Assembly: GCA_964016885.1 (NCBI GenBank)
Contig: OZ024741.1
Location: 309,566,001-309,630,000, forward strand
Direction of reading: 5' to 3'
DNA: 64,000 nucleotides
DNA from: Eledone cirrhosa
Taxonomy: Eukaryota
Shown: positions 1 to 39,981 of the stretch, one piece after another
How positions within the stretch are numbered: position 1 is the first letter of the stretch
Layout: every line of letters starts with the position of its first letter
Program-made: the position numbers and the translations under genes
Notes under the pieces: model-generated
Told to the model about the DNA's origin: nothing
Databases searched by the model: none
Seen by the model: the letters and a program-made list of their open reading frames with translations, nothing else

Positions 1-8
1 CAATTATT

Positions 9-360
9 GGCACTACAACGCTATTAGCTGTCAGTCCAGTGGAAAACAGGCGAATGTGACGTCACTCGTAAACATCGTTTATTTCCGTATTACTACCACG
101 CGTAAGTGGAGTTTTCACGCGTTTTTTTTTTAGAGAGAGAGGGAAGACTTAAAAGGGCCAAATTAGGAAACAAGTCATGGTTATAAAGCATATCGATGTA
201 AGGGGAGTTACTTAAATGAAAATATAGGTGGCCCTTAAAAGGGCTAAATTAGAAAACAAGTCATGGTTATCAATGTAGAAAACAAGTCATTCATAAATTT
301 AACTTTTATAATCAAAATTTTTTCAGTAACAAATATGACAGCTAATAGCGTTGTAGTGCC
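9..360 (+). mobile_element. Non-autonomous TIR element (MITE) forming the left end
   Basis: 25-bp inverted repeat at 9-33 and 336-360 (TGACAGCTAATAGCGTTGTAGTGCC), with internal short direct repeats (AAAAGGGCxAAATTAG.AAACAAGTCATGGTTA). Confidence 0.75.
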
Positions 361-395
361 CGCAATTCTGTATCTTTACGTATATTGCGCATAGA

Positions 396-640
396 TACGA
401 GGGTTGACAAAGATACTCTCATGGAATGTGACCAAATGAGGTTTATTTTTCAACATAGTCTCCCTTGCGTTCCACACACTTCTTCCATCGGTGTTGCAGA
501 ACTGAGATCAATGTTTTCCTCGGTAGTGGCAGTTGTAGGACGTCCAGACATTGGGTCATCTTCAAGAATCCCCTATCCTTTCCTAAATTCGGCTGCCTAC
601 TTTTGCACAAAGGAAAATTGTGGTACAATATTGCAAGGTC
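396..640 (-). pseudogene. Internally deleted mariner transposase remnant with one TIR
   Basis: Minus strand reads AAEFRKG*GILEDDPMSGRPTTATTEENID (mariner N-terminal region) joined to QHRWKKCVERKGDYVEK* (mariner C-terminus). TA-CGAGGG mariner-type end at 396. Confidence 0.8.
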
Positions 641-1349
641 TGCTTATAGCATTATCCATCTTTCAAAAATGAAGGTCCACATTTCGTCGACTTCAATACA
701 TTTTATTACATTTTATTGTATTGTAAACATTAACTTTTATGGAAATTTTATTACAAAATTTCAATTTAGTTCGATTTTTTGGAATTTATTTAACAAACAT
801 GGAAAAATAAGAAAAAGAATAAAATAAAAAATAATTTGATTGCCTTTAATAAAGAAGATAAATAGAGTGGAACTGATTTCCAGGTCATACTAATGAAATA
901 AGGTTTTTCCATTATTGATATTATCTGTCTGCCACAAGTCCTGGTAGAAGATGTTACACAAACTAATGTATTTTAATGAAAGACGCAACATGATGCAAGA
1001 TCGAAGAAACGAGCCCATGACTTTATAATGGTTAGTCCAGTACCGTAACCCCTAAGGCATGTGCCGTCACAGAGGAAAGGTAAATCATATTATAACAGAT
1101 TAGATGGGTACTATGTTAGATATTACTATGTGTCATATTATACCAAAGAGGAAGTGTGCTGTATAATAAACATTGATATCAGGTTGATTCAATAACTACC
1201 CGGTCCCGAATATGAACCCATGAACTTATGGTCGTCAGTCAAACACTTTAACCATTGTATGTATGTATACATGTATGGATGGATGGATGGATGTATGTAT
1301 GTATGTATGCATGTATGTATACATGTATATATGTAAGTATGTATGCGTG

Positions 1350-3802
1350 TATGAGAACAACTGGAAGGACTTCAGGAGCTCGGTCTATGAGGCTTCAGCA
1401 GAGGTCCTTGGCTTTGTCACAAGAAAACAAGGACTGGTTTGATGAGAATGACCAGGAGGTCAAGGCTCTGCTAGACAGAAAACAAAAGGCACTTGATGCA
1501 GTTCTTAACGGTGGTAGCTCTGTTGGTGACAATTATGAGCGTTACAGACAGGTAAAGAAAGAAGTGCAGGTGAAACTCGGGGCTATGCAAAATACCTGGT
1601 GGAGCAACAAAGCAGATGAAGTTCAAGTGGCATCTGACGGCAACAATGTGAAACTGCCGCACTTTCTACTCACAGAGGTGTATGGCCCTTTCAGCTCTCC
1701 AGTGGCCCCTTTGAGATCGAAAGATGGCAAGCAATTACTGCGCTACCCAAAAGACACTCGACAGATAGAGAGATCACTTTGATGAGCTCTTAAACCAGCC
1801 ATCCCAGGTTGATGATGATTTCATTTGTTCCATTCCTATTGAACCAGTGAAGCATATGAGATGGCTAATGTATCTTCTCTTGCAGAGGGGACTTCTGTTG
1901 TGCATAAGCTGGACTGTGGTAAGTCTCCTGGTATGGATGGTCTGAGTGGAGCGGTTTTGAAGTGTGGTGGTGAAAACTTCACGCAGCGCCTGACTGACCT
2001 CATAAAAATGGTGTGGGAAGATGAGAATGTCCCACAAGAAGGATGCGTTCATGGTGATTCTCCATAAAGGAAAGGACGGCAAGGACAAATGTGGCAATTA
2101 TCATGTCATATCCCTTCTTTCAGTAGTTGGTAAAGTCGTGTCGAATATTGATGGATAGATTGATCCGAAGTGTTGCCTGAGTCGCAGTGTGGGTTCAGAA
2201 ACGAAAGAGGAACAGTAGATATGATCGTTTCTGCTCGGCAGCTGCAAGAAAAGTGTATCGAACAATGTATGGACCTTTACCAGGTCTTTGTTGACTTGAC
2301 AAAGGCCTTTGACACTGTCAATCAAACTGCGTTGTGGGAAAAAAATCCAAGGTAGGGTAGAAGATTCTGCATCTTTTCCATGATGACATGAAGGCTTTGG
2401 TCAGTATTGGTGGTAGCATCTCTGAACCAATATCAGTTGAAAATCGAGTGAAGCAGGGGGACATTCCGGCTCCAACTCTGTTTTCCTTACATTTTACGAT
2501 AGTGTTTCTCATGGCATTCAAATATTGTTCTCATGGGGTTTACATCAGGTATCGCACTTCAGCAAGGTTGTTCAACACCAGGCGCTTTGGTACAAGCACA
2601 AAGGTATTAACATCTATAATCCAAGAGTTTTTGTATGCAGACGACTGATCTTTTTGCACACTCACAAAGGGACATGCAGCATATTATGAACTCTTTTTCT
2701 GCAGCTTGCAGCACTTTGGGCGTCACAATAAGCTTGGAAAAGACTGTTGTGATGTATCAGCCAGTACCTGGAAATGAGTACACTGCACCAAGTGTGTACG
2801 TGTACGGAAAGAGGCTAAAAGTTGCTGACAAGTTTGTTTACCTTGGTAGTACGTTGAACACTTCATGCAGACATGATAATGAAATATCCTTAAGAATCAA
2901 GAAAGCCAGTGATGCTTTTGGACGGCTGCATCAACGTTTATGGTCCAGACGAGGTATCACTATCGAAACCAAGGTGAAAGTGTATCTGACTTGTGTCGTC
3001 TCCTCTTTACTTTATGTTTGTGAAACGTGGGTCACATACAGAAAGCACCTCAAGGATCTGGAGAGATTTCACCAACAATCTCTTCATAAGTTACTTGGGG
3101 TGTGGTGGAAAATGTTCACCAGTGACTTGGAAGTTCTAGAACGGAGCAAGTGCGTGACTATAGAGAGCATAATCTTTCGGTATCGGTTGAGGTGGTGCAG
3201 TCACGTGGTCCGGATGTCTGATGATCGTATTCCAAAGCAACTTCTCTATGGAGAACTGTGTGAAGGAAGGCGACCACCACATAAACTAAAAAGGCAGTAC
3301 CGGTACTGTATCAGGAGCACCTTGGCTTGTGCTGGAATTTCATCTGACGAATGGGAGAAAATGGCTGGAGACGTTTGATCAAGTCAGGTGGGGAACACTT
3401 TGAAACTCGTCGGAGAGAACACCTAACACTGAAAAGGAAGGTGAGGATTGAGACTGTTCTGAACTGCCTGATGTTGAACATCATCTGGTTTGCCAGCACT
3501 GGTCGAGTCAGCCTGAGCAAAGCTGGTTTGATTAGACATGAACAAAGTCATATCAGTAGACCTCATGTAGATTATGATCTGAAAAAGTGTAAGAAATGTA
3601 CAAGCATGGGAGATCTTAAAAGATACATGTGAACATACAGCCAGAACAAAGCAATGGAAGGTTTCGAGGGAGCCTAAAGTTGCCATGTGTGTGCCAGAGG
3701 GTGCAAGTATTTGGCTGGTTTAAAGAGTCACATTTGTGCTTCACATTTTTGAACATTTTATCGGGCGATGGCAATACTTGAACACGAGTTTGCAGCCATC
3801 AT
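1350..3802 (+). mobile_element. Degraded RTE-clade LINE, 5'-truncated
   Basis: Fragmented frames: KDWFDENDQEV, GKSPGMDG, LPESQCGFR, FVDLTKAFDTV, VKQG..APTLFSL, FLYADD, FVYLGS, RLRWCSHVVRM...PKQLLYGEL, then C2H2-like remnants. The 3' tail CTTGAACACGAGTTTGCAGCCATCAT is followed by a microsatellite. Confidence 0.9.
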
Positions 3803-3825
3803 GTAGTATGTATGTATGTATGTAT

Positions 3826-4451
3826 GTCGGGTCACTCTTTAGTGCTATTGGTAACATGTAACCCAGTACAACCTGTCACATGGTCCGGTCGTCGGCGACT
3901 AAACCGGCAACCCCACCAAGTTTACTTGGTGAGGAGGGTGATTTTGGACACCCTGCAGGACAAAAAACAAAACCTGACAAAGGGCGGAAGAGCTCATAAG
4001 AGTCAACGGCCATCCAATAGTGTGTACATATGTATATACACATGTACATATGTATGTATATGTATATGTGTATGTACATAGGTGCATGTGTATGTACATG
4101 CACGGGGACATAGAAATAATCGGGCTGGACACCCGATTGCGCGGTTAAACCACTGGGAGTGAAGGACTCCTAGCCTTTGTCAGGGCATTCTTCTAGGAGA
4201 AGGCAACTCAGAAAACTGGGATAACTCCGATATAAAACCTGCGGCTCAGTAGTTACCGATGATGTTGATATTTTCTTCTTTTCGGGTTATAGTTACTGTC
4301 GCTCAGAGAGTGGGATTGGCTCAGTGCACAGTCTTTCCTCATTTAAAAAAATATCTTCATGCACAGGCATTGCACAATAGAATTAATTAATAATTATTAA
4401 TAATGGTATATCATGCAATGGCCATACTCGATAACGAGGGGGCAGCCATCA
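3826..4451 (+). mobile_element. Short non-autonomous (bipartite) RTE derivative: 5' part plus RTE 3' stem-loop tail
   Basis: Homologous in reverse orientation to 33142-33745. Ends in GGCCATACTCGATAACGAGGGGGCAGCCATCAT, the same tail type as the LINE ending at 3802. Confidence 0.6.
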
Positions 4452-4711
4452 TGTATGCATGCATGCGTGTATATATGTGTGTGTGTGTATATATACGTGT
4501 GTGTGCGTGTGTGTATATATATATATGTGTGTGTGCGTGCGTGTGTGTATATATATATATATGTGCATGTGGGTGTGTATATATATATATCTCCATATAC
4601 ATATTTATTCAGCTGATATAGGCTGGATTGGTTGGAATATTCTGACGCGAATTCTTTCTGCTCTGTTAAATCGAAACAAATCTTGACTTTTTATTTGAGG
4701 TTTTCTATATA

Positions 4712-5345
4712 AGAGACCGGGAGACCATGTTGATACTATGAAGGCCATTTGTCCTAAGCCGCCTGGACTATTGCTCCCAGCTGTGGTCACCCCATAGTAT
4801 CAAACTAACCACGGAACTTGAGACAATCCAACGAAGCTATGCCAAGAGGATTGCACGATGAAGGAGATGAGCTACTGGGAGAGGCTAAAAGAACTGAAAC
4901 TCTACTCCTTGGAACGAAGACGGGAGAGATACGCAGTGATATACATATGGAAAATCCTGGAGGGACTATCGCCAAACTTTGGTATTGAGAGCGGGACCCA
5001 CCCCCGAACAGGACGTCACTGTGTGGTGACAAAGGTCCTGTCTTCCACATCTAGAACAAGAAGCAGATATTGCAATAGACTGGGGTTCAAAGGCCCTCAA
5101 CTCTTCAACAAACTGCCGAGGGATTTGAGAGATCTACATGGTGTGGCCGTGGATATTTTCAAGAAACTTCTCGACACCCTGTTATCCAGGATCCCGGATG
5201 AGCCCACATCACGGTACGAAGGTAACCTAAGGGCAGCAGCAACGAACTCCCTCTTACATCAATGGCCAGCCAACACAGGCTGGAGATAGAATGTTTAGCA
5301 ACAAGGGCAGTGCCCAATCATGGTCTCAGCCGGATGGCTGGAACA
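4712..5345 (+). mobile_element. CR1-group LINE 3' fragment
   Basis: RLDYCSQLWSP then MSYWERLKELKLYSLERRRERYAVIYIWKIL...GPQLFNKLP...FKKLLDTLLSRIPDEP, a typical CR1 ORF2 C-terminus. Confidence 0.85.
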
Positions 5346-5725
5346 GCTAAAAGAGTATATATATATATTTGAAATAGAAATGGCTTCAACAGGACTAGAA
5401 CTGTTTAATTCGGAGGAAATCATCAGAAAAGCCGACTGTCAATGTAATATGGTGGTATTTATACATTTTCTGGTGGGGGGGGGGGGGGGGGGGGTTAGTA
5501 AATTGATGCTAAGTAGACAAACACATACACACTGACAGGCACTCCTAATTTTCAAGATTCATTTATTCCAAACAAACAAAAGGTTTTCATTGAGTGGCAA
5601 TATTAAAATGCTCTGTTAAAAGATATAAATATGTGTGTGTGTGTATGTATATATATGTGTGTGTGTGTTTGTGAATATATATATATATATATGTGTGTGT
5701 GTTTGTGTATATATATATATGTGTC

Positions 5726-8700
5726 CCATGAATGTAGGCACCTTAAAAGGCCGCTCTAACGAGGTTGTAGAAATGCTTGAACATAAGGAGGTTGATGTTT
5801 GCTGTATCCAAGAGACCAGGTGGAGGGGCGGGTCTGCTAGATTCATTGTGGGTAAAAAAACGTTGCTATAAGCTTTTCTGGGTGGGAAATGACAATGGGA
5901 TAGGTGGGGTAGGAATCATGTTAGCAGAAAAATGAGTGGATAAGATAATAGATGTAAATAGAGTAAATGACAGAATAATTAAAATAAGACTTGTTCTAAA
6001 TAGAACTACTGTGACAGTAATATCTGCATACGCGCCCCAATCCGGACTGCCTGGTGCTATAAAAGACAGATTCTATGAGACACTGATGCTCACTACCTCC
6101 CAAATAACCGACAGTGACTATATAATTATTGCTGGCGACCTAAATGGCCACGTTGGACAACATTGTGACGGCTATGACGGAATCCACGGAGGCTATGGGT
6201 TTGGTACTAGAAACGAGGAAGGCTCCAGAATCCTGGAATTCTGTGATGCAAATAACCTAACTATCTGTAACACTAACTTCAAAAAATGAGACAATCACTT
6301 GATCACCTACAGATCAGAGGAACATACCAGCCAGGTAGATTATATCCTTACCAGAAGACGTGACAGAGTGTCTGTTGTAAACACTAAATCCCTCCCCCAT
6401 GAAGAATGCACCTCCCAACATAGACTGATAATTAGCGACCTGATAGTCAGGACGAGACGTACTAGACAGCAGAAGAGGACTATCCTCAGGAGAAAAAATA
6501 TGGAAGCTAAAGGACCCTACAGCCAGAAATAAATTTAAAAGCATATTACTTGATGCTTTCGACAGTAAGGAAGAGCAATTAGAGTCGTACAATATTGAGG
6601 AACAGTGGGAATTCCTGAAAGCAAACCTGCTGATGGCGGCAGACGAAGTCTGTGGCTGGAGCAGGCCTGTAGGCAGGAGGAGAGTAACATGGTGGTGGAA
6701 CAGTAAGGTGGAGGAGTCAATTAAGGCCAAAAAGCAGGCTTGGAAAGTATGGCGGGATGGGGGAAGTAGAGAAGACTATCAAGTGGCCAGGAGGGAAGCT
6801 AGGAGACAAGTGTACTTCGCAAGAAGGGAAGCAGAGGAGAGAAAGTTCAAGCATGTTCTACAACGCGAGGACCAAAAACGTGAGGTGTTCAGGATTGTTA
6901 GGCAATGTGTCAAGGAAAACCGTGATATTGTCGGGGAGAAGTGTGTACTTAATGATGATGGCGTACTTGCCATCACTGACGCTGATAAGAAGGTAGCTTG
7001 GAAGTGTCACTACGAAAGGCGAATAAATGGGAGAAAGACAGTCTCCCTCACATCGACCCAATAGAGGGACCAGCAGTGTTAGTCGAAGGTAGTATAATAA
7101 GTAAGGCAATCAAAGATATGAAGACGGGTAAGGCGGCTGGGCCTTCGGAAATAGTTGCTGAGATGCTGAAAGCCTCTGGAACGGTAGGACACACCATGGT
7201 CACCCGGATAGTAAACCAAGTCATACAGAATGGGGTTGTTCCGAAGGACTGGCGTAGCAGCATCATCATTAACTGCTACAAGGGTAAAGGAGATGCCCTA
7301 GATAGGAGTAACTATAGAGGCATTAAATTAATCGACCAGGTCATGAAGGTCACAGAAAAAGTAATAGCGCAACTAATCAGAGAGAGAATTGATCTAGATG
7401 AAATGCAGTTCAGGTTTGTATCAGGCAAAAGTACCACAGACGCTCTTTTCATTGTACGACAACTACAGGAGAAGTACCTAGCTAAAAGTAAACCCCTATA
7501 CTTAGCTTTTGTCGACTTGGAGAAAGCCTTCGACAGAGTTCCCCGTTCCATTATCTGGTGGGCTCTTAGAAAACTAGGTGTTGATGAATGGCTTGTGAGA
7601 GCTATACAAGCCATGTATAAAGAAACAGTCAGCAAGGTTAGAATTAACAACGAATATAGTGAAGAGTTTAGCGTAAAAGTTGGTGTTCATCAGGGCTCTG
7701 TTCTTAGCCCCCTACTATTTATTATTGCCCTTCAGGCTATAACAGTGGAGTTCAAGACCGGCTGCCCATGGGAACTCCTATACGCAGATGATCTAACGCT
7801 CATAGCTGAATCAATGGCCGAGCTAGAGAAGAAATTCCAAACATGGAAGCACGGCCTAGAATCAAAAGGCCTTAAAATTAACCTGGCTAAGACTAAAGTT
7901 CTAGTTTGTAGGAAAGAAAATAAGGCGCCGGTCCCTTCCGGGAAATGGCCATGCTCAGTGTGTAGGAAAGGCGTAGGTAGAAACTCCATTTTATGTCCCA
8001 AATGCAAAATATGGGTGCATAAAAGATGTAGTGGGATCACAGGTAAGCTAACTAAGAACACAGATTTTTACATGTGGCCGGTGCTCTGGTGCAATAAGTA
8101 GCAGCAAGTGCCCACAAAATACTAGCTCTTTCAATTGCGTAGAGGGTTCTATAGAAATAGTGGACAGCTTCCGTTACCTGGGTGACAAAATCAGCAGTGG
8201 GGGAGGGTGCTCTGAAAGTACAGTAGCTAGAGTCAGAACTGGATGGAAAAAGTTCAGAGAGCTTATACCACTATTAGCCGCTAAAAATGAAAGGCAGGCT
8301 GTATGATGCCTGCATACGAACAGCAATGTTACATGGCAGTGAGACCTGGGCATTGTGTGCAGAGGATATACGCAGACTAGAGAGGAACGAAGCTTGCATG
8401 CTCCGCTGGATGTGTAATAGTAATATACGCGAACGGCAAAGCATAAATGAACTAAGGGAAAAATTAGAAATAAGAGGGATCAGATGTTGTTTACTCGAGA
8501 GAAGACTACGTTGGTATGGTCACGTGATGCGCATGAAAGACGACAGCTGTATAAAAAAGTGCAGGGCAATAAAGATAGACGGTAGCCACGGAGTAGGCAG
8601 ACCCAGAAAAACCTGGGACGACCTGATAAATTCTGACCTCACACACTTACACCTCTCCAAGACAATGTCACTTGACCGAGATCTTTGGCGGTACTCAGTA

Positions 8701-9090
8701 ATAGAGAAGACCCGCCTTACCTAAATACAAAGTAAAACCTACTACAGTCAGTAGGCATCTCTAACAAAATTCACCCCCGTCCCATCCACACCGCCCTTTC
8801 AATGTAAAGTTATGTTGGTGCCACAACATCCAGGCCGAAACAAATGAGATCGTGTAGGTGTCACGACAAAAAAACACACAGTCCACGCTGTAATGTGGCC
8901 GTGTAGGTAACACGGTAAAAACCTCCCAGTCCCACATTGTAAATGTGGTTGGTGTTCGGAAGGGCATCCTGCTGTAGAAAACCCGCCAGACAGTCCTATG
9001 CGAGCAAGACAACCACTCTTGCCTCAAGTGGGAAAACTCCCGTCCAAACCCATGCAAGCGTGGAACATGGACGTTAAATGATGATGATGT
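5726..9090 (+). mobile_element. Near full-length RTE LINE (APE endonuclease + RT), disrupted, copy 1
   Basis: NVGTLKG...[36 protein letters not shown] (APE); [44 protein letters not shown] (RT). Contains stops and frameshifts. 3' UTR ends in (GAT)n. Confidence 0.95.
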
Positions 9091-10900: not shown

Positions 10901-10913
10901 ATTGCCAACAATA

Positions 10914-24639: not shown

Positions 24640-25179
24640 TTACCATATTAACAACAAATATGACTTTCACTGCAAATCAAAAATGACAAGCTTTGTGAAT
24701 GGTGTTTCCACCCACTTTCCGCCCTCTTTTTTCTACAAAGCTAGTCATTTTCAACAGGTTTCAACGTCTTCATTGATAATATGTGCAAAAAATAGTTAAT
24801 TGCGAACACTTTTAATGTCAGATTGGGTGGTAAGCACACACAAAAAAAAGACAAAAAAAGCCGGAAGAAAATTTTTCACACTGAGTTCAATAGCATGGTG
24901 TGATGTAGTATGGTGTAGTTTGTTATGGTGTGGTTTGGTTTGGTGTAGTTTGGTATGGTTTAGTTTGGTGTAGTTATAACATGGAAACCTATCATAAATT
25001 TACCAAGGTATGGTATAATCTGGTTTGGTGTAGTGTAGGTTAGTGTGGTGTGGTGTGTTATTGTGTTGCATCGTATAGCGTGATTCTCTTTAAATTAAAA
25101 TCATTAAAATGTAATGCCTATCTTCTATATCTTAAAGAGTGACCTTAAATGTGATTGCAAATGACTTTTTTCGCTGGGT

Positions 25180-28100
25180 TAATGTCAGATTTAGGGTTAG
25201 TGTTAGGGTAAGTTTTACTGTTAATGGTAAGTTTATTGTTAGTGACTGTGTTACTGTTAGCATTACTGTCGCTGTTAGTGTTACTGTAACTGTTACTCTT
25301 ACAGTTACTGTTTGCGTTACTGTCTGCATCAGCGTTAGCATTTGCATAAGCGTCTATGTAAGCTTTTGTGTTAGTGTCTATGAAGACTGGTGTTAGCATC
25401 TGCGTTAGTGTTTGCGTAAGTCTCGGCATCTATGTCAGTATTTGCGTCAGCGTCTGCATTGGTGATAGTGATTGTGTCAGCATTTCCCTTAGCGTCTGAG
25501 TCAACATTAATGTTAGCATTAGTGTTTGTTTCAGTGCCTGTGTCTACGTCAGCTTCTGAGTCAGCATTATCATTAGCGTCCGCGTCAGCACTTGTGTCAG
25601 TGTCAGCATTTCCCTCAGTGTCAGCGTTTGCATCAGCGTGCACGTCAGCATTTGCATTAGTGTTTGAGTCAGTGTTAGCATCAGCGTTTGCATTTGTGTA
25701 GGGGTTAGCATTTGCGTCAGCATCTGCATCAGCATTCACATTAGCGACAGCGTTTCCTTTAACGTCTTTGTCTGCATTTCCGTTAGCGTCTGTGTCAGCG
25801 TCAGCGTCTGCGTCAGCATTTTCATTAGTGTTTGCATCAGTGTTTCCTTTAGCTTCTACGTCAATGTTTACGTCTGCGTTAAGGTTCACATTAGCATCGC
25901 TGTCATCGTTTGCTTTAACACTGCATCAACATTTGCGTCTGCGTTTGCATTAGTGTCTGCATTTGCTTTAGTGTTTGCATCAGCGTGAGCATTTGTGTCA
26001 GTGTCCACGTCAGCGTTAGAGTCTGTGTAGCATTTACATCAGCGTGTGCGTCAGAGTCTTTGTCAGCATTCGCCTTTACACCTGCCTCAGTATTCACGTT
26101 AGTGTTTGTGTCAGCGTAAGCGATTGTGTCAACATTTGCGCTCGCGTTTGTGCCAGCATAGCCATTTTCGTCAGTGTCAGCGTTGGCGTTAGTGTTTCCA
26201 TTAGTGTTCGTGTTAGTGTTTGATTTTGTATTAGTATTAGTGTTCAGGTTAATGTTGACTTAGTTTTCTGGTTAGTGTTAGTTTTCAGGTTAGGGCTCGT
26301 GTTACTTTTAGTGTTAGTGCTCAGGTTAGTGGTTTATGGTAGTGTTAGTTTTAGTGGTAGTGTTAGTGTTCAGGTTAATGTTCGTGTTAATGTCAGTTTT
26401 AGTGTTAGTGTTCAGGTTAGTGTTAGTGTTTACGGTAGTGTTAGTTTTAGTGTTAGTGTTGTGTTAGTGTTAGTGCTAGTCTTTGTTTTTCTGTGAATGT
26501 TAGTGTTTGTTTTAGTGTTGAGGTTAATGTTAGCTTAGTTTTCTGGTTAGTATCAGTTTTCGTGTTAGTTTTAGTGTTAAGGTTAGTGTTAGTGTTTTTT
26601 TTTGTGTTAGTTTTTATGGTAGTATTAGTGTTACTGTTAGTGCTCAGATCAGTGTTAGTGTTTGTGTTACTGTTTATGGTAGTGTTAGTTTTAGTGTAAG
26701 TGTTAATGTTAGTTTTAGTGTTAAGGTTAGTGTTAGAGATTGTGTTAGTGTTTGTTTTTGTGTTAGTATCTCTGTTAGCATTAGTGATTGATGTTTCCAT
26801 TAGTGTTAGTGATTGTGTTAGCGTTAGTCTTTGTTTTTGTGTTAATGTTAGCATTAGTATTTCTGTTAGTGTTAGCATGAGTGTTTGTGTTAGTGTTCAG
26901 GTTAATGTTAGCTTAGTTTTCAGGTTAGTGTTAGTGTTCAAGTTAATGTTAGTTTTACTGTTAGAGATTGTGTTAGTGTTTGTTTTTGTGGTAATATTTG
27001 TGTTAGTATCTCTGTTCGTGTTAGTTTTAGTGTAAGTGTTCAGGTTAGTGTTAGTGTTCAAGTTAATGTTAGTTTTAGTGTTAAGGTTAGTGTTAGAGAT
27101 TGTGTTAGTGTTAGTATTTGTTTTTGTGTTAATATTTGTGTTAGTATCTGTTAGCATTAGTGTTTGATGTTTCCATTTGTGTTAGCGTGAGTCTTTGTTT
27201 TTGTGTTAAGGTTAGCGTTAATGTTAGCATTAATATTTCTGTTAGTGTTAGCATTAGTGTTTATGTTAGTGTTCAGGTTAATGTTAGCTTAGTTTTCAGG
27301 TTAGAGTTAGTGTTCAAGTTAATGTTAGTTTTAGTGTTAGTGTTGAGGTTAGTGTTAGAGATTGTGTTCGTGTTTGTTTTTGTGTTAATATTTGTGTTAG
27401 CATTAGTGATTGATGTTTCCATTAGTGTTAGTGATTGTGTTAGCCTTAGTCTTTGTTTTTGTGTTAATGTTAGCATTAGTATTTCTGTTAGTGTTAGCAT
27501 GAGTGTTTGTGTTAGTGTTCAGGTTAATGTTAGTGTTCAAGTTAATGTTAGTTTTACTGTTAGAGATTGTGTTAGTGTCAGTATTTGTTTTTGTGTTAAT
27601 ATTTGTGTTAGTATCTCTGTTAGCATTAGTGTTTGATGTTTCCATTAGTGTTAGTGATTGTGTTAGCGTTAGTATTTGTTTTTGTGTTAAGGTTAGCGTT
27701 AATGTTAGCATTAGTATTTCTGTTAGTGTTAGCATTAGTGTTTATGTTAGTGTTCAGGTTAATGTTAGCTTAGTTTTCAGGTTAGAGTTAGTGTTCAAGT
27801 TAATGTTAGTTTTAGTGTTAGTGTTAGAGATTGTGTTAGTGTTTGTTTTTGTGTTAATATTTCTGTTAGTATCTCTGTTAGCGTTAGTGTTTGTTTTAGT
27901 GTTGAAGTTAATGTTAGCTTAGTTTTCTGGTTAGTATCAGTTTTCAGATTAGTGTTAGTGTTAGTGCTCAGGTCAGTGTTAGTGTTTATGGTAGTGTTAG
28001 TTTTAGTATAAGTGTTCAGGTTAGTGTTAGTGTTTATGGTAGTGTTAGTTTTAGTGCTGGTGTTCAGGTTAGTGTTAGTGTCAGTTTTAGTGTTAGTGTT

Positions 28101-28225
28101 AGTTTTCTATTTAATGTTAGTTTTCAAATTTTGTGTTTGTGTTAGTTTTCATGTTAGCGCTAAGTTAGAGCAAGTTAGAGCATGTTAGAGCATGTTAGAG
28201 CATGTGTGAGTGCAAGTGTTAGGGT
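25180..28225. repeat. Degenerate hexamer array (GTTAGT / GTCAGC variants) with longer internal duplications
   Basis: 6-bp periodicity throughout. GCGTCA-rich at 25400-26200 and GTGTTA-rich at 26200-28150. Blocks such as TTAGAGATTGTGTTAGTG and TGATGTTTCCATTAGTG recur. Confidence 0.9.
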
Positions 28226-28564
28226 AAGTTATTTTTAAAGTTTGGTTTTAGCTTAAAGTTAGGTTTTCTACTTTCCAGGAAAAAAGTTGATCCTCTCTAA
28301 CTTGAGTGGTGTGATATAGTGTGGTAAAGTATAGTGTTTCATAGTCTTGTGTGGTGTTGTCTATTGTTGTATAGTGTAGTATGGTATATTGTTTCATAGC
28401 ATGGTCTGATGTGAGGTCGTACAGTGTTTCGTAGTGTGGTGTTGGATAATGTGGTATGGTATAATGTTTGTCAGTGTGGTGTGGTATGGTATAGGTTGAT
28501 GTAGTGTGGCTTAGTTTGATTATAATAATACAAATAATAATAACAATAATAATAGTAATAATAA

Positions 28565-28767
28565 TTGTTCTTCTTGTTCATTTTCTTTGTCTTCTTCTGT
28601 GCCTTTGTTTTCTTCTGTGCCTTTAACTGCTTCTGTGACTTTGACTGCTTCTGTGCCTTTCACTGCTTCTGTGACTTTGACTGCTTCTGTGCCTTTCACT
28701 GCTTCTGTGACTTTGACTTCTTCTGTGCCTTTGACTTCTTCTGTGCCTTTATCTTCTCCTCTGCCAT
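28565..28767 (-). repeat. 18-bp coding-like tandem repeat (KGTEEV/KVTEAV) in an exon-like module
   Basis: Minus strand TTTTTGGTATTTAG|ATGGCAGAGG... One frame reads DGRGEDKGTEEVKGTEEVKVTEAVKGTEAV...KENEQEEQ without a stop. Confidence 0.55.
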
Positions 28768-29644
28768 CTAAATACCAAAAACAAAGAATGTAAAATATAT
28801 GTTGCCTATCTCTCAGACTTTACAAAGTGCTGAGGAGATAAAGTTAATTTAAAGAGCAGTGTGCTCATGCACTGTGATCCTATAATGTAGGTTATAAGCT
28901 ATTTCATAACTAAAAAACAATGTCAAACATCAACAAAAGTATATACAAATATCTTTGAATGTTTAAGTTAAACCTAAATAGATCGTATCTACAGGTCATT
29001 AGGTTAAGACTGAACTAAGATCATATCTATAAATCATTAGGTTTAGACTGAACTGAGATCATACTTTCTTCTTCTTTTCGTCATCTTCGTTTCCCATGTC
29101 TTCTTTGTCTTTGTTGTCATTTTCATTTTAGTCGTCTGCTCCGTCGTCTTTTTCTTCTTTTCCATCTAAATATAAAAAAAAAATTGTAAACAAATATATA
29201 GCTGATCTCTCAGACTTTCATGAAACACCGAGGAGATACAGTTAATATAACGAGTGGGGAGCTCATATATATATATATGGTATAGCATGGTGTTATGTGG
29301 TCTGGTGTGGTACAACATGGTGTGATGTGGTGTGGTATGATATGGTGAGGCGGGGGGGGGGGGACACAACGTTAGATTAATGTTAACAATACACATGTAG
29401 CATCCACATGTGATGAGAAGGGGGAAACAGTGTTTAACTAATTTTAACATTACATGTAGCATCCATCTACAGGTGATTAAGTTAAGACTGAGGTGTAATC
29501 ATATGAAAAGGTCAATTTAAAACTACACTGAGATTCTGCTTAAAATGATGGTCAATGAAGTGTTTACTTACTCAGATTCTTTGAAAGAACTTTCTTTCTC
29601 TTACTGTAACTGGTCATACCGACGAAATAGAAAACAGTCGAATA

Positions 29645-29965
29645 GACAGTGGTGTGGTGTAGTGTGGTTTAGTGTAGTGGACAGTGGTGTAGTGTAGTGT
29701 AGTGGACAGTGGTGTGGTGTAGTGGAGTGTGGTTCAATGTAGTGTGGGGGATATGTTGTAGTGGAGTGTGGTAGCATGTGATGTGATGTGGCGTGGTGAA
29801 ATGTGATGTGATGAAATGTGGCGTGGCGTGGTGAAATGTGATGAAATGTGGCGTGGCATGGTGAAATGAGGCGAGACGAGACAAGACGTGATGTGGTGTG
29901 GTGTGATATGGTGAGATATGGTGTGATGTGGTGAGATATTGTGTGGTGTGGTGTGATGTGATGTG
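29645..29965. repeat. Pentamer microsatellite (GTGTG/GTGAT/GTAGT variants)
   Basis: 5-bp periodicity visible directly. Similar arrays at 24895-25075, 28305-28520 and 30985-31320. Confidence 0.85.
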
Positions 29966-29979
29966 AAATTTTTTCATCC

Positions 29980-30970
29980 TATTTTTCATGTGCTATCAAC
30001 TAATCCAATCTCCAAGATGCTTGAAACTGACTTTTTCCCCCCAGGAAAACGGCGGGGTGAGGTGGTTCCCCCTTCACCCGGATAACCCCTGCTTACTCGG
30101 AATTTTCTCTTTGATTCTATTTTCATGCGTTATCAGTGAATATGACTTCCAAACCAGTCAAAAACAACTAGCTTTGGAGAAAGAGGAGAGGGAGAGGGGA
30201 AGAGTTTTGCAGATCTACACCCCACTCACATGTTGTGGGACTTAATCATTTTCGGTATATTTCCTGTGCTATTTCCTATGCTATTTCCTATGCTATTTCC
30301 TATGCTATTTCCTATGCTATTTCCTGTGCTATTATTTAATCTGACCTAGATGCTTCCAATCAACTTATTTCCCTGGGTTAGGTTTAGGGTTTAGTTTTAG
30401 GGTTGGGGTAATGTTTAAGGTCTAGTTTTCGGGTTGGGGTAAAGTTTAGGGTTTAGTTTTAAGTTCGGGATAAAGTTTAGGGTTTAGTTTTAGGGTTGGG
30501 ATAATGTTTAGGGTTTAGTTTTATGGTTGGGGTATAGTTTAGGGTTTAGTTTAAGGGTTGGGGTAATGTTTATATTTAGATTTAGCTTGGTTTGGTTTAG
30601 ATTTAGAGTTTAGGGTTGGGGCTAGATTTAATTTTATGTTTAATTTAGTTTTAGTTTCCAAATCCCAGAGAAAAAAAATTGATTCAGAGCAACTAAAAGG
30701 TCAGATTAGTTGATAGCACTCAAAAGGAGACCGAAGAAAAATCATTAGGGTATATATCTACAAAACGACAATGGTTTTTCCACCTGCTTTACCCCTCCTT
30801 TTTCCTAGAACAACTAATCATTTCCAACTGGTTTGGAGGTCATATTCGTTGATAACATGAGAAAACTCTGGGGTTAAATGAGAGAAGTGCATCCACCTAA
30901 GTTTTCCATGAAGAGAGAGTCAATAACAAACATCTTGGAGTTCGGATTAGTTGATAACACATGAAAAAAA
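29980..30970. mobile_element. Nested foldback element with a telomere-like G-rich centre
   Basis: Outer arms TTTTTCATGTGCTATCAACTAATCC..CTCCAAGATG and CATCTTGGAG..GGATTAGTTGATAACACATGAAAAA. Inner arms 30325-30378 and 30663-30719. The centre is a 31-bp unit GTTTAGGGTTTAGTTTTAGGGTTGGGGTAAT (~6 copies). A 12-bp repeat ATTTCCTATGCT lies at 30259-30332. Confidence 0.65.
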
Positions 30971-31649
30971 GATGAGGAAAATTTTTTTGGTGTTATGTGG
31001 TGTGGAGTAGTGTGATGTGTTTTTATGTGGTGTGATGTAGTGAGGTGTGGTGTGTTGTATTGTGGTGTTATTCGGTGTGGAGTAGTGTGTTGTGTTGTGG
31101 TGTGGTGTAATGTGGAGTGGAGTAGTGTGGTGTGTTGTGGAGCAGTGTTATGTGTTCTTATGTGGTGTGATGTAGTGAGGAGTGGTGTGTTTTTATGTTG
31201 AGTGGAGTAGTGAGGAATGGTGTGTTGTGTTGTGGTGTAGTGTTGTATGTTTTTATGGGGTGTGGTGAAGTGTGGTGTGATGTGGTGCGGTGCACTGCGA
31301 TGTGATGTGGTGCAGTGAGGTTCTTCATCTTTATCTTCTTCATCTTTGTATTCATCTTCTTTGTTTTGTCTTCCATCTAAACAAAAAAATATATAAAATA
31401 TATATGTAGCCAATCTCTCAGACTTTTACAAAGCTCCAGGGAGATAAATTTAATATAAGTGGTGTGTTCCTAAACAGAGATACTACAAAATAGCTTAAAA
31501 GCTATATATATATATACATATATATAAATAAATATACACGGGTGTGTATGATTGTGTATAGAAGATTATATTAATAAAACGAATTCAAACTTTGTCTGAT
31601 TTACTCGTTTTATTTACAATCCTTTAAAATTATAATGGTATTAGAATGA

Positions 31650-32722
31650 AATAGTATGGTAGAATATTAAGTGTTAAGTGTTAATTGAACAAGTAATTTC
31701 ATGCTTTCGCAATCTTCAGGTTCATATTCTGTGGTGACAGTCAAGTTTACAATTTTCAACTGTAATGAGATGGGTAAATTTTGTGCCTTATATACAGTGA
31801 AAAGCGGCTACAGAATGCTATATTTTGCAAACTGTATTTCGACCAATTGGTGTGTAGTTTCACTGGATTACTGAAGCTGATTGGTTTAGGCATCACGGTT
31901 GGTTGAGCATGTCTAACGACTTCAATTTGGCCCTATTCAAAGCATCAATTGTTTTTCTATTTTTAGAAATGATGAAAATAGCATTTTCTAGGGTTTTTAT
32001 ACCCCTAAGAATTATTATTGTTCATTTAGCTTGGGTTGGAATTTTGAAAAATATTCCCAAATGCAAATATGAACTGCAAAAGCAGAAATCTAATTTACTG
32101 CATTAAATGCCCGAATTGTGAAGAACTATATGTCGGTCAAACTGGAAATGCACTATCGGAACGTGCACGGGTGCACCGACAGCAAATCAGACCCAAATGT
32201 CCGTCAGATACCCCTGAGTAACCATCTAGCAACATGTGGTCAGAAAATATTTATAATATTTCCATTCTACAAATTACACAGGCCAAGTGAAATCAAGAGA
32301 AAAATCAAAGAAAAGAATTTTATTGATAAATTCCAACCCAAGCTAAATGAACAATAATAATGCTTAGGGGTATAAAAAGCCTAGAAAATGCTATTTACAT
32401 CATTTCTAAAAATAGCAAAACAATTGATGCTTTGGATAGAGCCAAATAGAAGTCGTTAGACATGCTCAACCAACCGTGATGCCTAAACCAGTCAGCTTCA
32501 GTAATCCAGTGAAACTACACACCAATTGGTCGAAATACAGTTTGCAAAATATAGCATTCTGTGGCCGCTTTTCACTGTATATAAGGCACAAAATTTACCC
32601 ATCTCATTACAGTTGAAAATTGCAAACTTGACTGTCACCACAGAATATGAACCTGAAGATTGCGAAAGCATGAAAGTACTTGTTCAATTAACATTTAACA
32701 CTTAATATTCTACCATACTATT
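31650..32722 (+). mobile_element. 5'-truncated Penelope-like element: GIY-YIG end flanked by inverted pseudo-LTRs
   Basis: ~395-bp arms at 31650-32044 and 32328-32722 are near-perfect reverse complements. The spacer encodes NMNCKSRNLIYCIKCPNCEELYVGQTGNALSERARVHRQQI / RQIPLSNHL...EKNFIDKFQPKLN*. Confidence 0.9.
32648..32686 (+). ncRNA. Minimal hammerhead-like ribozyme motif in the PLE repeat
   Basis: TGAAC-CTGAAGA-T-TGC(GAAA)GCA-T-GAAA-GTAC-TT-GTTCA: helix I TGAAC/GTTCA, CUGANGA and GAAA cores, short palindromic helix III. Mirror copy at ~31686-31724 (-). Confidence 0.55.
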
Positions 32723-32981: not shown

Positions 32982-33030
<49 letters not shown>

Positions 33031-33141
33031 CACACACACATGCATACACACACATATATGCATACACACATATATATACATACACATATATATATACATA
33101 CACACACACATATATATAGATATACATACATATACATATAT

Positions 33142-33745: not shown

Positions 33746-33767
33746 ACATATATATAGATTCATACAT

Positions 33768-33817
<50 letters not shown>

Positions 33818-34585: not shown

Positions 34586-34590
<5 letters not shown>
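34318..34590. mobile_element. Palindromic MITE
   Basis: ATAATAATAAACAAGAAAGACGGT / ACCGTCTTTCTTCTTTATTATTAT and TCATTTGTATAACATCTGCCCTACGTGTT / AACACGTAGGGCAGATATTATACAAATGA are inverted. Confidence 0.7.
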
Positions 34591-34671
<81 letters not shown>

Positions 34672-35968
34672 CGATATATTAACAAATGGAAACTATATTT
34701 ATAAAACCATATTTATTTCATTATACATATTTCAAGGACACCAAGTTAAATTATGGTGTGCTTTCATCAGATAAAATATAATATAGGCAGTTTTATAAAT
34801 AAATATTGACATACCCTTAAAGACTGCGACCATTACTGTTGGAAGCTCCCGGATAGTGGGGTTATAAATTTATTTATACTATTATGTTAATTAGTTTTGG
34901 ATATTTATAAATCAGAGTAGATTTAAATAAGCCGTTGGGTTATGGAGAAAGTGAGAGAGAGAGAGAAAAAAAAAGAGTGAGATATAAAAAAGAGAAAAAA
35001 GAGCAAACTCTAAGAAGAAAATAAGAAAAGGAGAGAGAGAAAAAGAAAAAGAAAAGAGAAAGCGAAAGCTCTAAGTGATAGGTTGTTGAATTATCTTAAC
35101 TTTTGAGATGACGTGAAAGAATAAATATTTAATGGATGAATAGAGAAGTGTAAATAAGCGTGAATGGAAAATACATACATAATAGGAGAATTTTACCCAT
35201 TGTTTAAATATGATTAAATGTTTAGTTTATCATTTAAATTATTTAGATCTATACATTAAAAATTGAGAATTATATATTATTAAGAAATCTATATATTATT
35301 AAGACTATATATTATTAAAAGAATATATTCATATATATACATACGCACACACAGATATATATAAATATATATACATACACCTACATATATACACATATAC
35401 ATACAAAGTATAAAGGATTTTTTAATTTAAGATATAGGAATTTTCATAAACTTATAGATATTTCTGAGAAAATCTTAGAAAAAACAGAGAAAATCATTTC
35501 TATGTAATATCAAAACAGCGTGAAGGAAATTACGTTATTTAGTTATATAAATGTTACAAATGTTAAGATAGTAAAGGAAATTTTAGGTTATACACACTTT
35601 ATGTTATTATACAAATTTTTTTAAATATAAGTTTTATATCTAATAAATCCACCTGTTATGTAGTTGTGACTTAATATAGGTTTGTTTATCACGAACCTTA
35701 AGAAAATCCTTATAAACGAGTGCAATCAAATTGTATGCATATATATATATACACACAATCCCCACATAGATACACATAGACGTACTTACACATATAGGTA
35801 GATATGCATCACACACATATATATACATACATACACACACATATATATACATACACACACATATATATATACATACACACACATATATATATACATACAC
35901 ACACACATATATATATACATACACACACACATATATATATACATACACACACACATATATATATACAT

Positions 35969-36061
<93 letters not shown>

Positions 36062-36542
36062 GAGAGAGAGATATAAATACAGTACATAGTATGATTGAAG
36101 TACATAATATATATGAAATGAAATGAAATGAAATGAAATGAAATTTAAAAAAATAAAAAAAATAAAATTAAAATAAAAAAGAATTATATTACGATTTGGA
36201 AATATAATTATAAGCAATATAACTTTAAATCAATATAATTTTTAAAATATTATAGAATATTTCAAGTTATAATTTTAAAATAATATGTTTAATAGATTCA
36301 GTATAAAAATTTTCTTCGTATGTTTAACTTAATTTTATAGCCATAAGAGAAAGAAAGAAACTTTCAAATAAAATATTTTCCCCCTTTAAGAGCTTTCAGT
36401 ATGTTTCTCTAGAAGAGTTTTTTTATTTTTATTTATATTTAGGAAGAACATTTTTTTAACTTTAGAGTTTAAGCAGTCAAATGAAGGAATCTAATGATTT
36501 ATCGATAGGTTCAATATATTAATAGAATTAATTAATTATATA

Positions 36543-37713
36543 TTACATTTTAAATTTATATTTAAACGTTGAGTTCAATCTATGTCTGCAGCAACTGAAT
36601 AAATTATTCCTTAGGTTCAGGGAATTTTTGGTCTTTAATATAAAGAATATTTCCTCTATACAAAGATCACAATTTTCTGAAGAGGAGTTAAAAGGAGTAG
36701 CTTTTGAAATAATATTCCAAAGCAACGAATATTTAACGTTCTTTAATTTGAGGTCCCATAATAAGCTAGATAGAGAAGTTGAAGATTTTTTTGTTTGGAT
36801 GTGTAAAGGAGTTTTTATGATTATTGAAACGCGATTTAAAATCTGTGGAAGTCGATCCTACATAATTAAATGAATTTAAATTAGCTTTTACATTACAATT
36901 ATATACTATATTTTTAGCTAAGCAATTGTTATTTGACGGACAGTTAGATTTATTTCTACAGTTACATTTATCAAATTGGATATTGCTTGGGTTATTAGTG
37001 GTATTTTGGTTAGGTTTTAAATTTCTATTATTAATTCTATTAATATTTTGCGCTAAATTTTTGGTGGATGAATAAGTTAATTTTATAGTATGTCTATTAA
37101 AAATTGAGTAATATGTGTTCTAGGGAAGCATTTGTCAAGAGCTTTAAAGAATAGTTTAGCAATAGGGGTTTTAATATTTAATGAGAAAGGAGGAACGAAC
37201 CATAATATATTCCTAGTTTTATTTCTTTTTTTGTTTTCCGAATTATTGTAAGGTTTTCTATTATAGTTGTTAAAATTGTTAAGATTATGGTTAGTTGTTA
37301 TATTATTATTATTATCAATGTATTTAATTTTATTTCTATACCCAGCTCTACCTAACGCTTCGTTGTAATAATGTGCTTTGTCATCAAATATATTCTTATT
37401 AGCTGAAATTCTAGAAATGCGTTGCTGTACAGAATTCACTATAGTATTTTTAATATAGTATTTTTAACGTGATTAGAGTTAAAATTAACGTAGTTTAAGT
37501 TCTCGTTTAGTTTGTGAAATGGATAATGAAGACATGTGTTAAGGTTTAATGTTACAACTAGAAAGTTAACTATTTTATGGTTATTCTCTATTTCTACTTT
37601 TAGATTAAGGTAATTAAAAAATTGTATAATTTCTTTTCTTTTCCTATTTAATTCACAGTTATTATTTTCGATAAGTAAAAGCATGTCGTCGCGATATAAA
37701 CCTCCGGTCATCT
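36543..37713 (-). mobile_element. Degraded Penelope-like element (RT C-terminus + GIY-YIG)
   Basis: GLYRDD..VNFLVVTLNL..YVNFNSNH, RISRISANKNIF, RNILWFVPPFS, CNCRNKSNCP, IVY..YVGST, CDLCIEE..CRHR, in frameshifted pieces. Confidence 0.85.
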
Positions 37714-37769
<56 letters not shown>

Positions 37770-38028
37770 GTTGAAACGGTAACACACTAGAGAGAGATAT
37801 ACAGTGTGCTATCAATAAAACAGGGAAAAAACCACCAGTGTATGGAATCTATAACCTATGAAAGGCAGACTATAGACACGATAATTAAAAATATAAATTA
37901 AAGCGTAAATAAATACCTCTATAACTATATAACGCACGTACAAATCCAAAGAGATCTGTTTCGCCAGTAAGTTGTTGCCAGAAATGGAATAACCCCGGTT
38001 CCTGGGCGTGTAAAAGACAACATTAAGA

Positions 38029-38180
38029 AAATTTTGGCGTCAAACTTTTCCTTTTGAAAGAAAAATGGCACCAAACTTTTCCTTTTGAAAGAATAATGTG
38101 ATTTGTCACGTGATTGTGTTCACGTGATATTACCTCTAAATATGTGAATACGTAGATACGTATTTTTTCCTTGTAAGTTC
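38029..38180. promoter_or_regulatory. Possible housekeeping or bidirectional promoter
   Basis: Duplicated TGGCxxCAAACTTTTCCTTTTGAAAGAA (E2F-like TTTTGGCG), two TCACGTGA E-boxes (38106, 38120) and a donor-like GTAAGT near 38173. Lies about 5 kb upstream of the ERMARD ATG exon. Motif evidence only. Confidence 0.3.
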
Positions 38181-38254
38181 GGAAAAATGATAAACTGGAA
38201 TAATTCTAAAATCGGGAAAAATTGTTATATCACTCAAATGATGCTATTGCATTG

Positions 38255-38410
38255 AGCCTCCTTTTCACACTTCCAGTATCGATGGAAAATGGTGAGAGTA
38301 GTTTCTCAAAGCTGAAGCTTATAAAATTTTACATTCACTCTACAATGTTGCAAGAGAGTTTTGCTGACTTGCATTTTAAACGATAATAAAGCGATTATTA
38401 ATCATTGAAA
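38255..38410 (+). pseudogene. hAT transposase C-terminal dimerization-domain remnant
   Basis: LFTLPVSMENGESSFSKLKLIKFYIHSTMLQES matches the hATC pattern TxPVxxxxxERSFSKLKLIKxYLRSTMxQERL. Confidence 0.75.
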
Positions 38411-39200
38411 GACTCAAAATGGAATACTATGGAATATTTTTACTTAGTCCGGATAAGAGTATACTATTTTCCATTACCGAGGGTATACTCTTAAGCGGAC
38501 TCGACTGTACCTGCGGGCTAGACCGAGGGGGGGGGGGAAGTCGGATCCCATCACAATATTCCCGTTCCATGATAGTAAGGCCCCTTCACCTGAGGGGCAA
38601 AGGTTGTTGTTTAGCCCTAGGTCAACCTTGACTAAACAACAGAATTCCATTATGATCAACGGTATTCCAGCCACGACCATCCCGTCGTTTTAGGTGTATC
38701 TAATAACTACATTATCGGACATCGTGTTCTTGCTTAATATTTTTTTAAGGTGGGTGGAAAGAATTGGCTGTTATTTCTAGCAAACTGAGTGCCCACATAG
38801 TATGTGTATATGGGGGAGGGGTATTTTAAAGTAAGGGAGTACAAGTGTTTGTGAAACATTTAACCATTTACATTATAAATTCAAATGTGTGGGTAGTTCT
38901 TGGTGATCGAACGAAAGGAACCGATACGAGATCCATTAATTCTGTATATATATATATATAAATTCTGTATATATATATATATAAACTCAGAAACACACAT
39001 ACAATAACGACGAGTACTACGATTCTGGAGGAGCGAATGATGGAGAAGATGAAGCTCTCTGCCGCAGAATAAATGGTATTTAATTTTAATAATAATACTA
39101 ATAATAATATATATATTTCTTAATTGAATTGATTATCATTATCGTTTTTATGGCAAAAGATAGACAGAGAGGGAAAGAGATAGACAGAGGGAAAGATTTT

Positions 39201-39252
<52 letters not shown>

Positions 39253-39625
39253 AGAAAGAAGAGAAAAAAACGAGACCCTTAGAAACGAATAAGAGTCATC
39301 AAAGCGATCATATGTATTGCTTTAAACTTTAATGCGAAGGGATACACTAGTATTTGAGGTACCATCATTTGGGATTTTAACCCTCGGACTTTTCCCTCCC
39401 GGTTTTGAAATTTAGGGAAAATTTAGGGGTGACTGGGAATATTACATAATGTAGGGATTTTCTTTTCCTTTTCTATCATTTCTTATTTATGTATTTATAT
39501 ATTTATTTATCTACTCTCGTGATTGATATTCCGACAAATGTTAGGGGTGTATTTTGGTTTTTTATTATGTTAGGTATAGCATCCAAAAATTTCTCCCTTC
39601 CCCCAATATATATATATATATACAA

Positions 39626-39710
39626 ACACAGTGTCCCAAAAAATGTATACACACTTCAACAGCAAAGTAATCAAAGTGTGTATATATTTTGGAGGGGACA
39701 CCGTGTGTAT
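39626..39710. mobile_element. Tiny Tc1/mariner-type MITE
   Basis: ACACAGTGTCCCAAAAAATGTATACACACTT is imperfectly inverted against AAGTGTGTATATATTTTGGAGGGGACACCGTGT, within a TA run. Confidence 0.55.
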
Positions 39711-39774
39711 ATATATATATATGTGTGTGTGTGTATGTGTAACTAGTAAAACTGTAAAAACGCAGCGGTATATT

Positions 39775-39967
39775 CTAATTTGGCCCTTTTAAGGGCCACC
39801 TATATTTTCATTTAAGTAACTCCACTTACATCTATATGCTTTAATAAAAAAAAAAAATTAAAAAATTCATTTAAGTAACTCCACTTACGCGTGGTAGTAA
39901 TACGGAAATAAACGATGTTTTGCTTTCATCGGCTGCTTCGACTGACAGCTAATAGCGTTGTAGTGCC
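39775..39967 (-). mobile_element. Inverted copy of the left end of the 9-360 element
   Basis: Reverse complement matches 9-36, ~70-113 and ~184-253. Confidence 0.85.
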
Positions 39968-39981
39968 CAATTATTATGTAA

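Follow-up and report, generated by a model that had tools for sequence, protein, structure and literature searches.

Merlin transposons, as presented in the relevant sections of PMC8101967, have 5'-GG termini, terminal inverted repeats (TIRs) of 24-462 bp, target-site duplications (TSDs) of 8 or 9 bp, internal tandem repeats, and a DDE_Tnp_IS1595 transposase of about 300 amino acids without an N-terminal Zn_Tnp_IS1595 domain; the element length given there is 2.57 kb. Here, we analyse a 64,000-nucleotide stretch of the genome of Eledone cirrhosa (assembly GCA_964016885.1, contig OZ024741.1; hereafter the window), in which positions 9-39967 represent, with a probability that we place at about 93%, one member of a young family of giant non-autonomous Merlin elements with many copies, likely moved whole by a 302-amino-acid transposase encoded in sister elements. 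Its termini, TSDs, transposase and tandem repeats are like those of the Merlins in that source, but the copies span 18-84 kb, autonomy lies with a 3-kb palindromic partner that carries two transposase genes, and a histone-like 3' cassette sits in the ends. We regard it as a Merlin of ordinary chemistry in an unusual giant form.

The part of PMC13282606 that annotates the Octopus vulgaris genome lists two recent Merlin families with 11 insertions and 29 kb in total. Giant elements with TIRs, 10-30 kb long, that contain fixed nested insertions and are often moved in trans are described for the groups KDZ, EnSpm and Sola-1 of Ectocarpus in sections of PMC12477816, which tie giant DNA transposons to organisms with long haploid phases. 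Those are algal elements of other superfamilies with accessory genes, whereas ours reside in an animal, reach 40-48 kb and above, carry gene-free cargo and are linked to a very small transposase. Closer in architecture are the maize Ac/Ds macrotransposons, in which the ends of two neighbouring elements mobilise the repeat-filled DNA between them; Ds-l4-483, as far as the account in PMC3260210 goes, pairs a complete small element at one end with a truncated element at the opposite end, like the window element, but the maize cases belong to the hAT superfamily and are single events or a single 7.3-kb element, while ours is an amplified family. KolobokP shows composite-like ends with a terminal unit that has its own inner TIR (PMC9587614, in part), and natural cut-and-paste elements are generally regarded as confined to small sizes, a passage of PMC6431247 stating that their efficiency falls above about 6 kb of cargo. 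The open literature (Repbase, Dfam and subscription papers lying outside this scope) yielded no Merlin that is giant or palindromic, nor any DNA transposon with a histone stem-loop.

Whole-unit insertion at many sites

Coordinates below are positions in the window unless prefixed by a contig label (C1 to C10); the window itself is C2:309566001-309630000. An exact 28-bp TIR lies at 9-36 (+) and 39940-39967 (-), with no match in shuffled sequence and a mismatch at base 29, and it is flanked by an exact duplication, CAATTATT, at 1-8 and 39968-39975, whose length of 8 bp was checked with the left flanking DNA beyond the window. The original prediction had named both features, together with inverted subterminal blocks, and all were recovered, the blocks (2-254 against 39773-39975) at 70% over 255 columns. 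The terminus reads GGCAC (5'-GG) and not GGGCAC or CGGGCAC, as had been considered. The left terminal unit (9-360) is complete and matches positions 1-273 of the palindromic partner element at 92%. It has an inner TIR, previously placed at 336-360, which occupies 333-360 with 25 bp perfect and three mismatches over 28 and is followed by CGCAATTC. Every inner TIR examined has the identical sequence just downstream, and this junction is a fixed internal joint of the family. At the right end, no inner TIR was found.

The collection of genomic copies proposed by the original prediction gave 389 exact matches of the first 24 TIR bases in the 3.0-Gb genome and none for a control sequence. Patterns exposing eight flanking bases identified 299 of them (120+40+139) as outer-type ends; from the remaining roughly 90 and the constant inner-TIR junction we infer about 90 giants of the window type. 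The motif at the palindrome centre has 46 matches at about 30 loci, and we estimate the family at around a hundred giant copies, or 3-4 Mb of the genome. Among the 240 outer-type ends listed (complete for C1-C3 and for C4 up to 249.5 Mb, and paired by hand), 39 inward-facing pairs lie 15-90 kb apart. An exact 8-bp TSD flanks 28 of these pairs, the last of which (C2:398.6 Mb) was seen once its true end, with one mismatch, had been located; five more match at 7/8 positions, one has a 9-bp TSD and five are unmatched. Two of the 28 are segmental duplicates, which leaves 26 independent loci, each with its own TSD. When the flanks of 71 ends were compared, 22 of 2485 pairs matched, 18 of them true partners; the non-partner matches (4/2467), which give the rate of chance agreement, were all AT microsatellite flanks. 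Flanks resembling CAATTATT had been envisaged beside most copies, but CAATTATT occurs at the window copy only among the 240 ends. Giant copies span 18-84 kb, most of them 22-31 kb. The copy at C1:392.5 Mb interrupts an RTE-type long interspersed nuclear element (LINE), and its flanks overlap by exactly 8 bp in paralogous LINEs (5 of 6 adjacencies displayed, 13 in total); this comparison was clean at that copy alone, ten others, the window copy included, giving no clean result.

The interior is shared as well. Ten other TSD-flanked copies (18-40 kb), fetched whole, are colinear with the window interior over about 12-22 kb of chained alignment each, and homology among copies ends at the TIRs. 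Of 13 segments compared with the window, 12 have a median substitution of 1.6-3.7%, and one, a tandem-repeat segment, has 5.8%. The trees, built from 13-14 copies, take a star-like shape, private variants outnumbering shared ones by 259 to 55, which would fit a single burst of spread. Common ends, locus-specific 8-bp TSDs and a colinear interior show that the unit inserted whole at many sites, as had been proposed for the segment of about 40 kb.

The cognate transposase lies between the same TIRs in sister elements. PF12762 matches occur about 0.5 kb inside the TIR at several loci, and the copy at C3:15.91 Mb has an intact 302-amino-acid open reading frame (ORF) with a DDE_Tnp_IS1595 match of 68.8 bits, with the DDE residues D151, D212 and E249 in the conserved blocks. 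PF12762 is the sole match of this protein at E<=0.01, with no Zn_Tnp_IS1595 domain; identity to the four best Octopus proteins is 73-85%, and no solved structure matched. The original prediction saw no cognate transposase, which is right for the window (0 of 141 ORFs) but not for the sister copies. The window element is thus, as judged from sequence, a non-autonomous giant Merlin (IS1595-like DDE), which the transposase of sister copies would mobilise in trans. Its 5'-GG TIR termini, the 8-9-bp TSDs and the IS1595 DDE transposase between the same TIRs agree with the Merlin/IS1016-type identity suggested earlier. hAT elements, the other source then named for the 8-bp TSD, have hAT-type termini, a hAT transposase and an 8-bp TSD; the agreement is limited to TSD length, the termini here being GGCAC and the linked transposase PF12762.

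The search for an autonomous partner and for further long TIR-bounded copies, also proposed earlier, found the ten TSD-flanked giants and the palindromic transposase elements. Three palindromes of 2.8-3.3 kb with the same TIR each hold two divergent transposase genes between their own TSDs (two exact, one at 7/8). In transposase-bearing giants, one half of the palindrome is followed by 83 bp of the other arm and then by the same core that starts at window position 9090; the joint, 83 bp beyond the palindrome centre, falls in an (AT)n(GT)n tract, where the two sides overlap by 2 bp (AT). A second Merlin family, with GGCGATATCC ends, is also palindromic (L160:1045-4872 and L050:716-3190; 2.5-3.8 kb, with TSDs), so this build recurs in the genome.

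Some loci of the window family have structures of their own. Four segmental duplicates of a single insertion at C5:12.46-13.06 Mb have one common TSD, and the 84-kb copy at C3:42.01-42.09 Mb, flanked by a TSD, contains further family members nested within it. Two left ends on different chromosomes (L151, C4:11.59 Mb; L152, C7:71.75 Mb) have one long flank in common, and this junction is also present in reads of another individual (run X7). L173 and L174 (C2:160.78 and 160.95 Mb), two ends that point the same way at a distance of 164 kb, have reverse-complement flanks, as after an inversion between copies; the partner end that such an inversion predicts at C2:160.73-160.78 Mb was not found within 60 kb.

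Layout, cargo and neighbours of the window copy

The features of the window copy are the following.

1-8: left TSD copy, CAATTATT, also a tail of a short interspersed nuclear element (SINE)
9-36 (+): left 28-bp TIR with 5'-GG terminus
9-360 (+): left terminal unit, a complete Merlin-family deletion form resembling a MITE (miniature inverted-repeat transposable element), with its own inner TIR; 92% match to the palindrome
183-245 (-): left copy of the histone H4-like 3'-end cassette; its stem-loop, at 230-245, has one stem change
333-360 (-): inner TIR with fixed downstream junction
361-5722: cargo A, decayed LINE pieces and microsatellites, common to the transposase-less subfamily
5723-9087 (+): RTE-type LINE, an insertion private to the window copy
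9090-34700: core cargo of both transposase-bearing and transposase-less copies, starting at an (AT)n(GT)n microsatellite
13174-24230 (+): 864-bp satellite in about 13 units, of which several are 100% identical; the array differs in length among copies
24900-31320 (+): G/T-rich simple repeats (TTAGTG, TGGTG), with degenerate TTAGGG at 30375-30654
31650-32722: 395-bp inverted repeat flanking a GIY-YIG fragment (Penelope-like remnant), shared cargo
34701-39772: distal cargo, with a GIY-YIG fragment at 36769-37119 (-); 38059-39772 is common to other copies
39773-39967 (-): right terminal family sequence, about 200 bp, without inner TIR
39782-39845 (+): right copy of the histone H4-like 3'-end cassette, matching Rfam Histone3 with 34 bits, which equals the gathering score
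39940-39967 (-): right 28-bp TIR
39968-39975: right TSD copy, CAATTATT

The Pfam search covered 141 window ORFs of at least 55 amino acids, with satellite and low-complexity frames excluded. Reverse transcriptase, endonuclease, PHD-like, GIY-YIG and weak C2H2 matches all lie in or beside LINE and Penelope debris, and two further matches are weak and below the cut-off. No host coding fragments of the kind found in Pack-type elements were detected among these ORFs, a search that short exons would escape. The cargo thus appears to be LINE and Penelope debris, satellites and simple repeats, without a host gene. A gene-capturing Pack-type element was rejected because the cargo ORFs show retroelement-typical domains, as was viral (Teratorn-like) cargo, no ORFs of that kind being present in the window. 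A subtelomeric origin of the G/T repeats is not supported, since nothing beyond low-complexity matches of 65-73% came from 20 contig-end stretches. True (TTAGGG)n arrays stand at the starts of C7, C9 and C10, and the cargo tract at 30375-30654 is degenerate.

Growth by nested insertion and satellite expansion, as had been suggested, is visible in this copy. The 3.4-kb RTE at 5723-9087 is missing at the matching joint in the copies at C1:5.55 Mb and C2:282.1 Mb, and arrays of the 864-bp satellite, itself confirmed, are shorter in most other copies; the private insertion and the long array account for most of the growth to 40 kb. The promoter-like region near 38 kb, once considered as possibly tied to the neighbouring gene ERMARD, is cargo shared by other copies. 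It includes a decayed stretch at 38270-38390, without a Pfam match, which by eye we take to resemble a hAT dimerisation motif.

To the right of the element, an ERMARD-like gene runs away from it at 42942-59822 (+) and past the window, with eight coding exons within; the first (42942-43148) starts 3 kb from the element, and those for residues 1 to about 453 all lie to its right. A 54%-identical match to ERMARD residues 517-566 lies about 9 kb left of the window, on the minus strand and out of order. The nearest named relatives of both this gene and the linked transposase are Octopus proteins. An open frame of more than 1025 amino acids at 60926-64000 (+) continues off the window; its reverse-transcriptase-like and GIY-YIG-like words, recognised by eye, probably mark a young Penelope-like element in an ERMARD intron.

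Origin of the giant unit and rival readings

The giant unit may have arisen when the transposase brought together the left end of a 350-bp MITE and a family end some 25 kb away, so that ordinary repeat DNA between the paired ends was carried along as the first giant, which would then have spread in a single burst. Later, a palindromic autonomous copy could have inserted into or beside one giant and had most of its right arm removed by a deletion reaching the microsatellite at 9090, which would give the transposase-bearing giants with the same core. The window copy, once inserted, would have been enlarged from about 25 to 40 kb by LINE insertion and satellite expansion. Recruitment of ends is recurrent: four loci on C3 and C4 carry an additional outer end and one identical inner junction, and in the copy at C3:15.91 Mb a window-type end lies 148 bp outside the autonomous-type end.

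Several observations count against the overall reading or limit it. Five of the 39 pairs have unmatched flanks, and at the window locus the left CAATTATT doubles as the natural tail of a flanking SINE, a tail that appears again at 40360-40372; the TSD of this copy alone is therefore weak evidence, and the family-wide pairing carries the case. No empty site bridging both junctions was found in reads or contigs at the window locus, where SINE copies swamp the matches; because both flanks are SINEs, reads at these junctions are uninformative. The tree does not order the transposase-bearing and transposase-less subfamilies. A founder MITE with CGCAATTC on its left gave 0 matches at up to one mismatch, and a TIR-free donor of the cargo was not found in the fully listed regions, for which the best 40 of 603 candidates were scored: 23 of 26 core matches adjoin a family end or centre, and the remaining three are truncated giants. 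As neither founder nor donor was found, the capture step is a reconstruction.

The missing founder is also what would be expected if the cargo came from inside, that is, if a single Merlin was broken, for example at the palindrome, and about 25 kb of unrelated DNA was then copied in between its ends by gap repair. Such products do occur, one being a 580-bp form in which the last 540 bp of the giant are joined to a bare 28-bp TIR, and the right end resembles a shortened left-type end, as a palindrome-arm remnant should. We nevertheless consider this origin doubtful, since the left unit is a complete MITE with inner TIR and fixed flank, outer ends were recruited again at no fewer than four loci, and cargo A passes into the core over a plain microsatellite, as host DNA would. 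Spread of the interior by segmental duplication or ectopic recombination, with the ends as independent small elements, could explain the duplicates that share one TSD (four at C5:12.4-13.0 Mb and those at C3:252.5/252.9 Mb) and the ends that are unpaired or inverted; it is very improbable and largely refuted by the 26 independent loci with their own TSDs and by homology that stops at the TIRs.

Tn10, a bacterial composite transposon, has a complete terminal element at each end. The Tn10-like composite of the original prediction stands in so far as the outer ends move the interior with one TSD; the right end has no inner TIR and the unit belongs to an amplified family, not to a single event. 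The left unit alone is complete, and there is no selectable cargo and no long direct repeat, which sets the element apart from Tn10 and, on the published features considered here, from KolobokP. That the window locus reflects one such event, or a chance 8-bp match of two unrelated MITEs, we give practically no credence: the AT-rich target and the SINE tail would favour it, but it is refuted by the same interior between the same ends at many other loci.

The 580-bp deletion form stands three times in tandem at C4:23.913-23.919 Mb (L129).

The histone-like cassette and Merlin ends at histone loci

The stem-loop 3' end is described in part of PMC2781718 as unique to replication-dependent histone mRNAs, on which it confers S-phase regulation. 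The sole Rfam match in the window is to this signal (Histone3, RF00032; 39777-39821, 34 bits, at the gathering score), and among 20 Merlin loci there are 15 matches of 34-37 bits, all in the family of the window element. The cassette, comprising stem-loop and downstream element, is identical at 60-62 of 64 nt to the 3' end of an H4 gene at C7:67.46 Mb. Over its first 36 nt it agrees with four H4 genes except for one difference in the loop, and other H4 genes are more distant, yet share parts of the extension. This similarity suggests H4 as the donor, and the cassette was probably captured during insertion at a histone gene.

Insertion at histone loci would offer a simple route for such a capture. 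Ends of the window family lie within 1.5 kb on either side of 4 of 30 histone-gene loci and 2 of 54 control loci, both of the latter having been chosen as Merlin transposase loci. Twenty-five ten-kb histone stretches contain 16 end matches of the window family and 8 of two other Merlin families, counts that include two adjacent-bin pairs, represent about five clusters and come from wider stretches that were chosen partly after matches had been seen. A control of 384 kb has two window-family ends, which belong to neighbouring truncated giants, and none of the other two families; 200 kb of evenly spaced control has no Merlin end match. Ends of three families cluster at histone loci relative to control DNA that was not selected for active genes, but since most copies of the family sit elsewhere, this is a preference at most. 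At C2:321.54-321.60 Mb and C7:79.69-79.76 Mb, giant copies are inserted downstream of histone stem-loops, at distances of 77 and 434 bp; at the latter locus, a right and a left end face outward 20 kb apart with one common TSD, beside an inverted H3/H4 duplicate.

Whether the cassette acts in RNA processing can be weighed from its position and conservation. In 20 of 21 transposase copies it lies in sense 3' of the stop codon, at a distance of 134-137 nt in 13 of them, and the canonical 16-nt stem-loop is kept in 108 of 132 family copies. With genuine histone 3' ends it shares this stem-loop, the ACC after it and a candidate downstream element, AAGT at +17, the same word class being found at +16/+17 in 36 of 47 genuine histone signals. 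The Merlin version differs in standing about 137 nt after the transposase ORF and in lacking the conserved upstream A (-2/-3), present in all 47 genuine signals and replaced by TTT in Merlin copies. The sense orientation and the joint presence of stem-loop and downstream element at histone spacing would suit histone-type, S-phase processing of the transposase mRNA, which we put forward as a hypothesis.

We think it probable, all the same, that the cassette is a passive relic or a motif acting at the DNA level, such as a protein-binding palindrome, with no role in RNA processing. To the missing upstream A are added AATAAA-like words between stop and stem-loop, an antisense copy that the inverted repeat places upstream of the gene, and other Merlin families in the genome without the cassette. 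Selection on the stem-loop was not detectable, stem positions decaying at 2.5-2.9% per site, as does the family overall, and in the minimum-energy fold of the whole 3' untranslated region the hairpin region is formed only in part, as a 7-pair stem that stands apart amid longer AT pairings. A broader proposal, that octopod Merlins home to histone clusters and that the captured H4 signal ties transposase mRNA to S phase and so enabled the giant spread, is speculative and in our judgement unlikely to hold. Cut-and-paste elements gain copies by transposing during replication. If it is true, replication coupling would explain how a transposase of about 300 amino acids spread 25-50-kb units to about a hundred sites, and if the cassette is functional, a transposon would be borrowing a 3'-end pathway called unique to histone mRNAs and timing its transposition to S phase.

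For the family itself, a minimal Merlin transposase has apparently moved units of 25-50 kb repeatedly in an animal, with cargo of no visible benefit. Giant Merlins are thus a route by which satellites and LINE debris spread in blocks, and their copies supply long dispersed homology for rearrangements and hint at a possible large-cargo vector.

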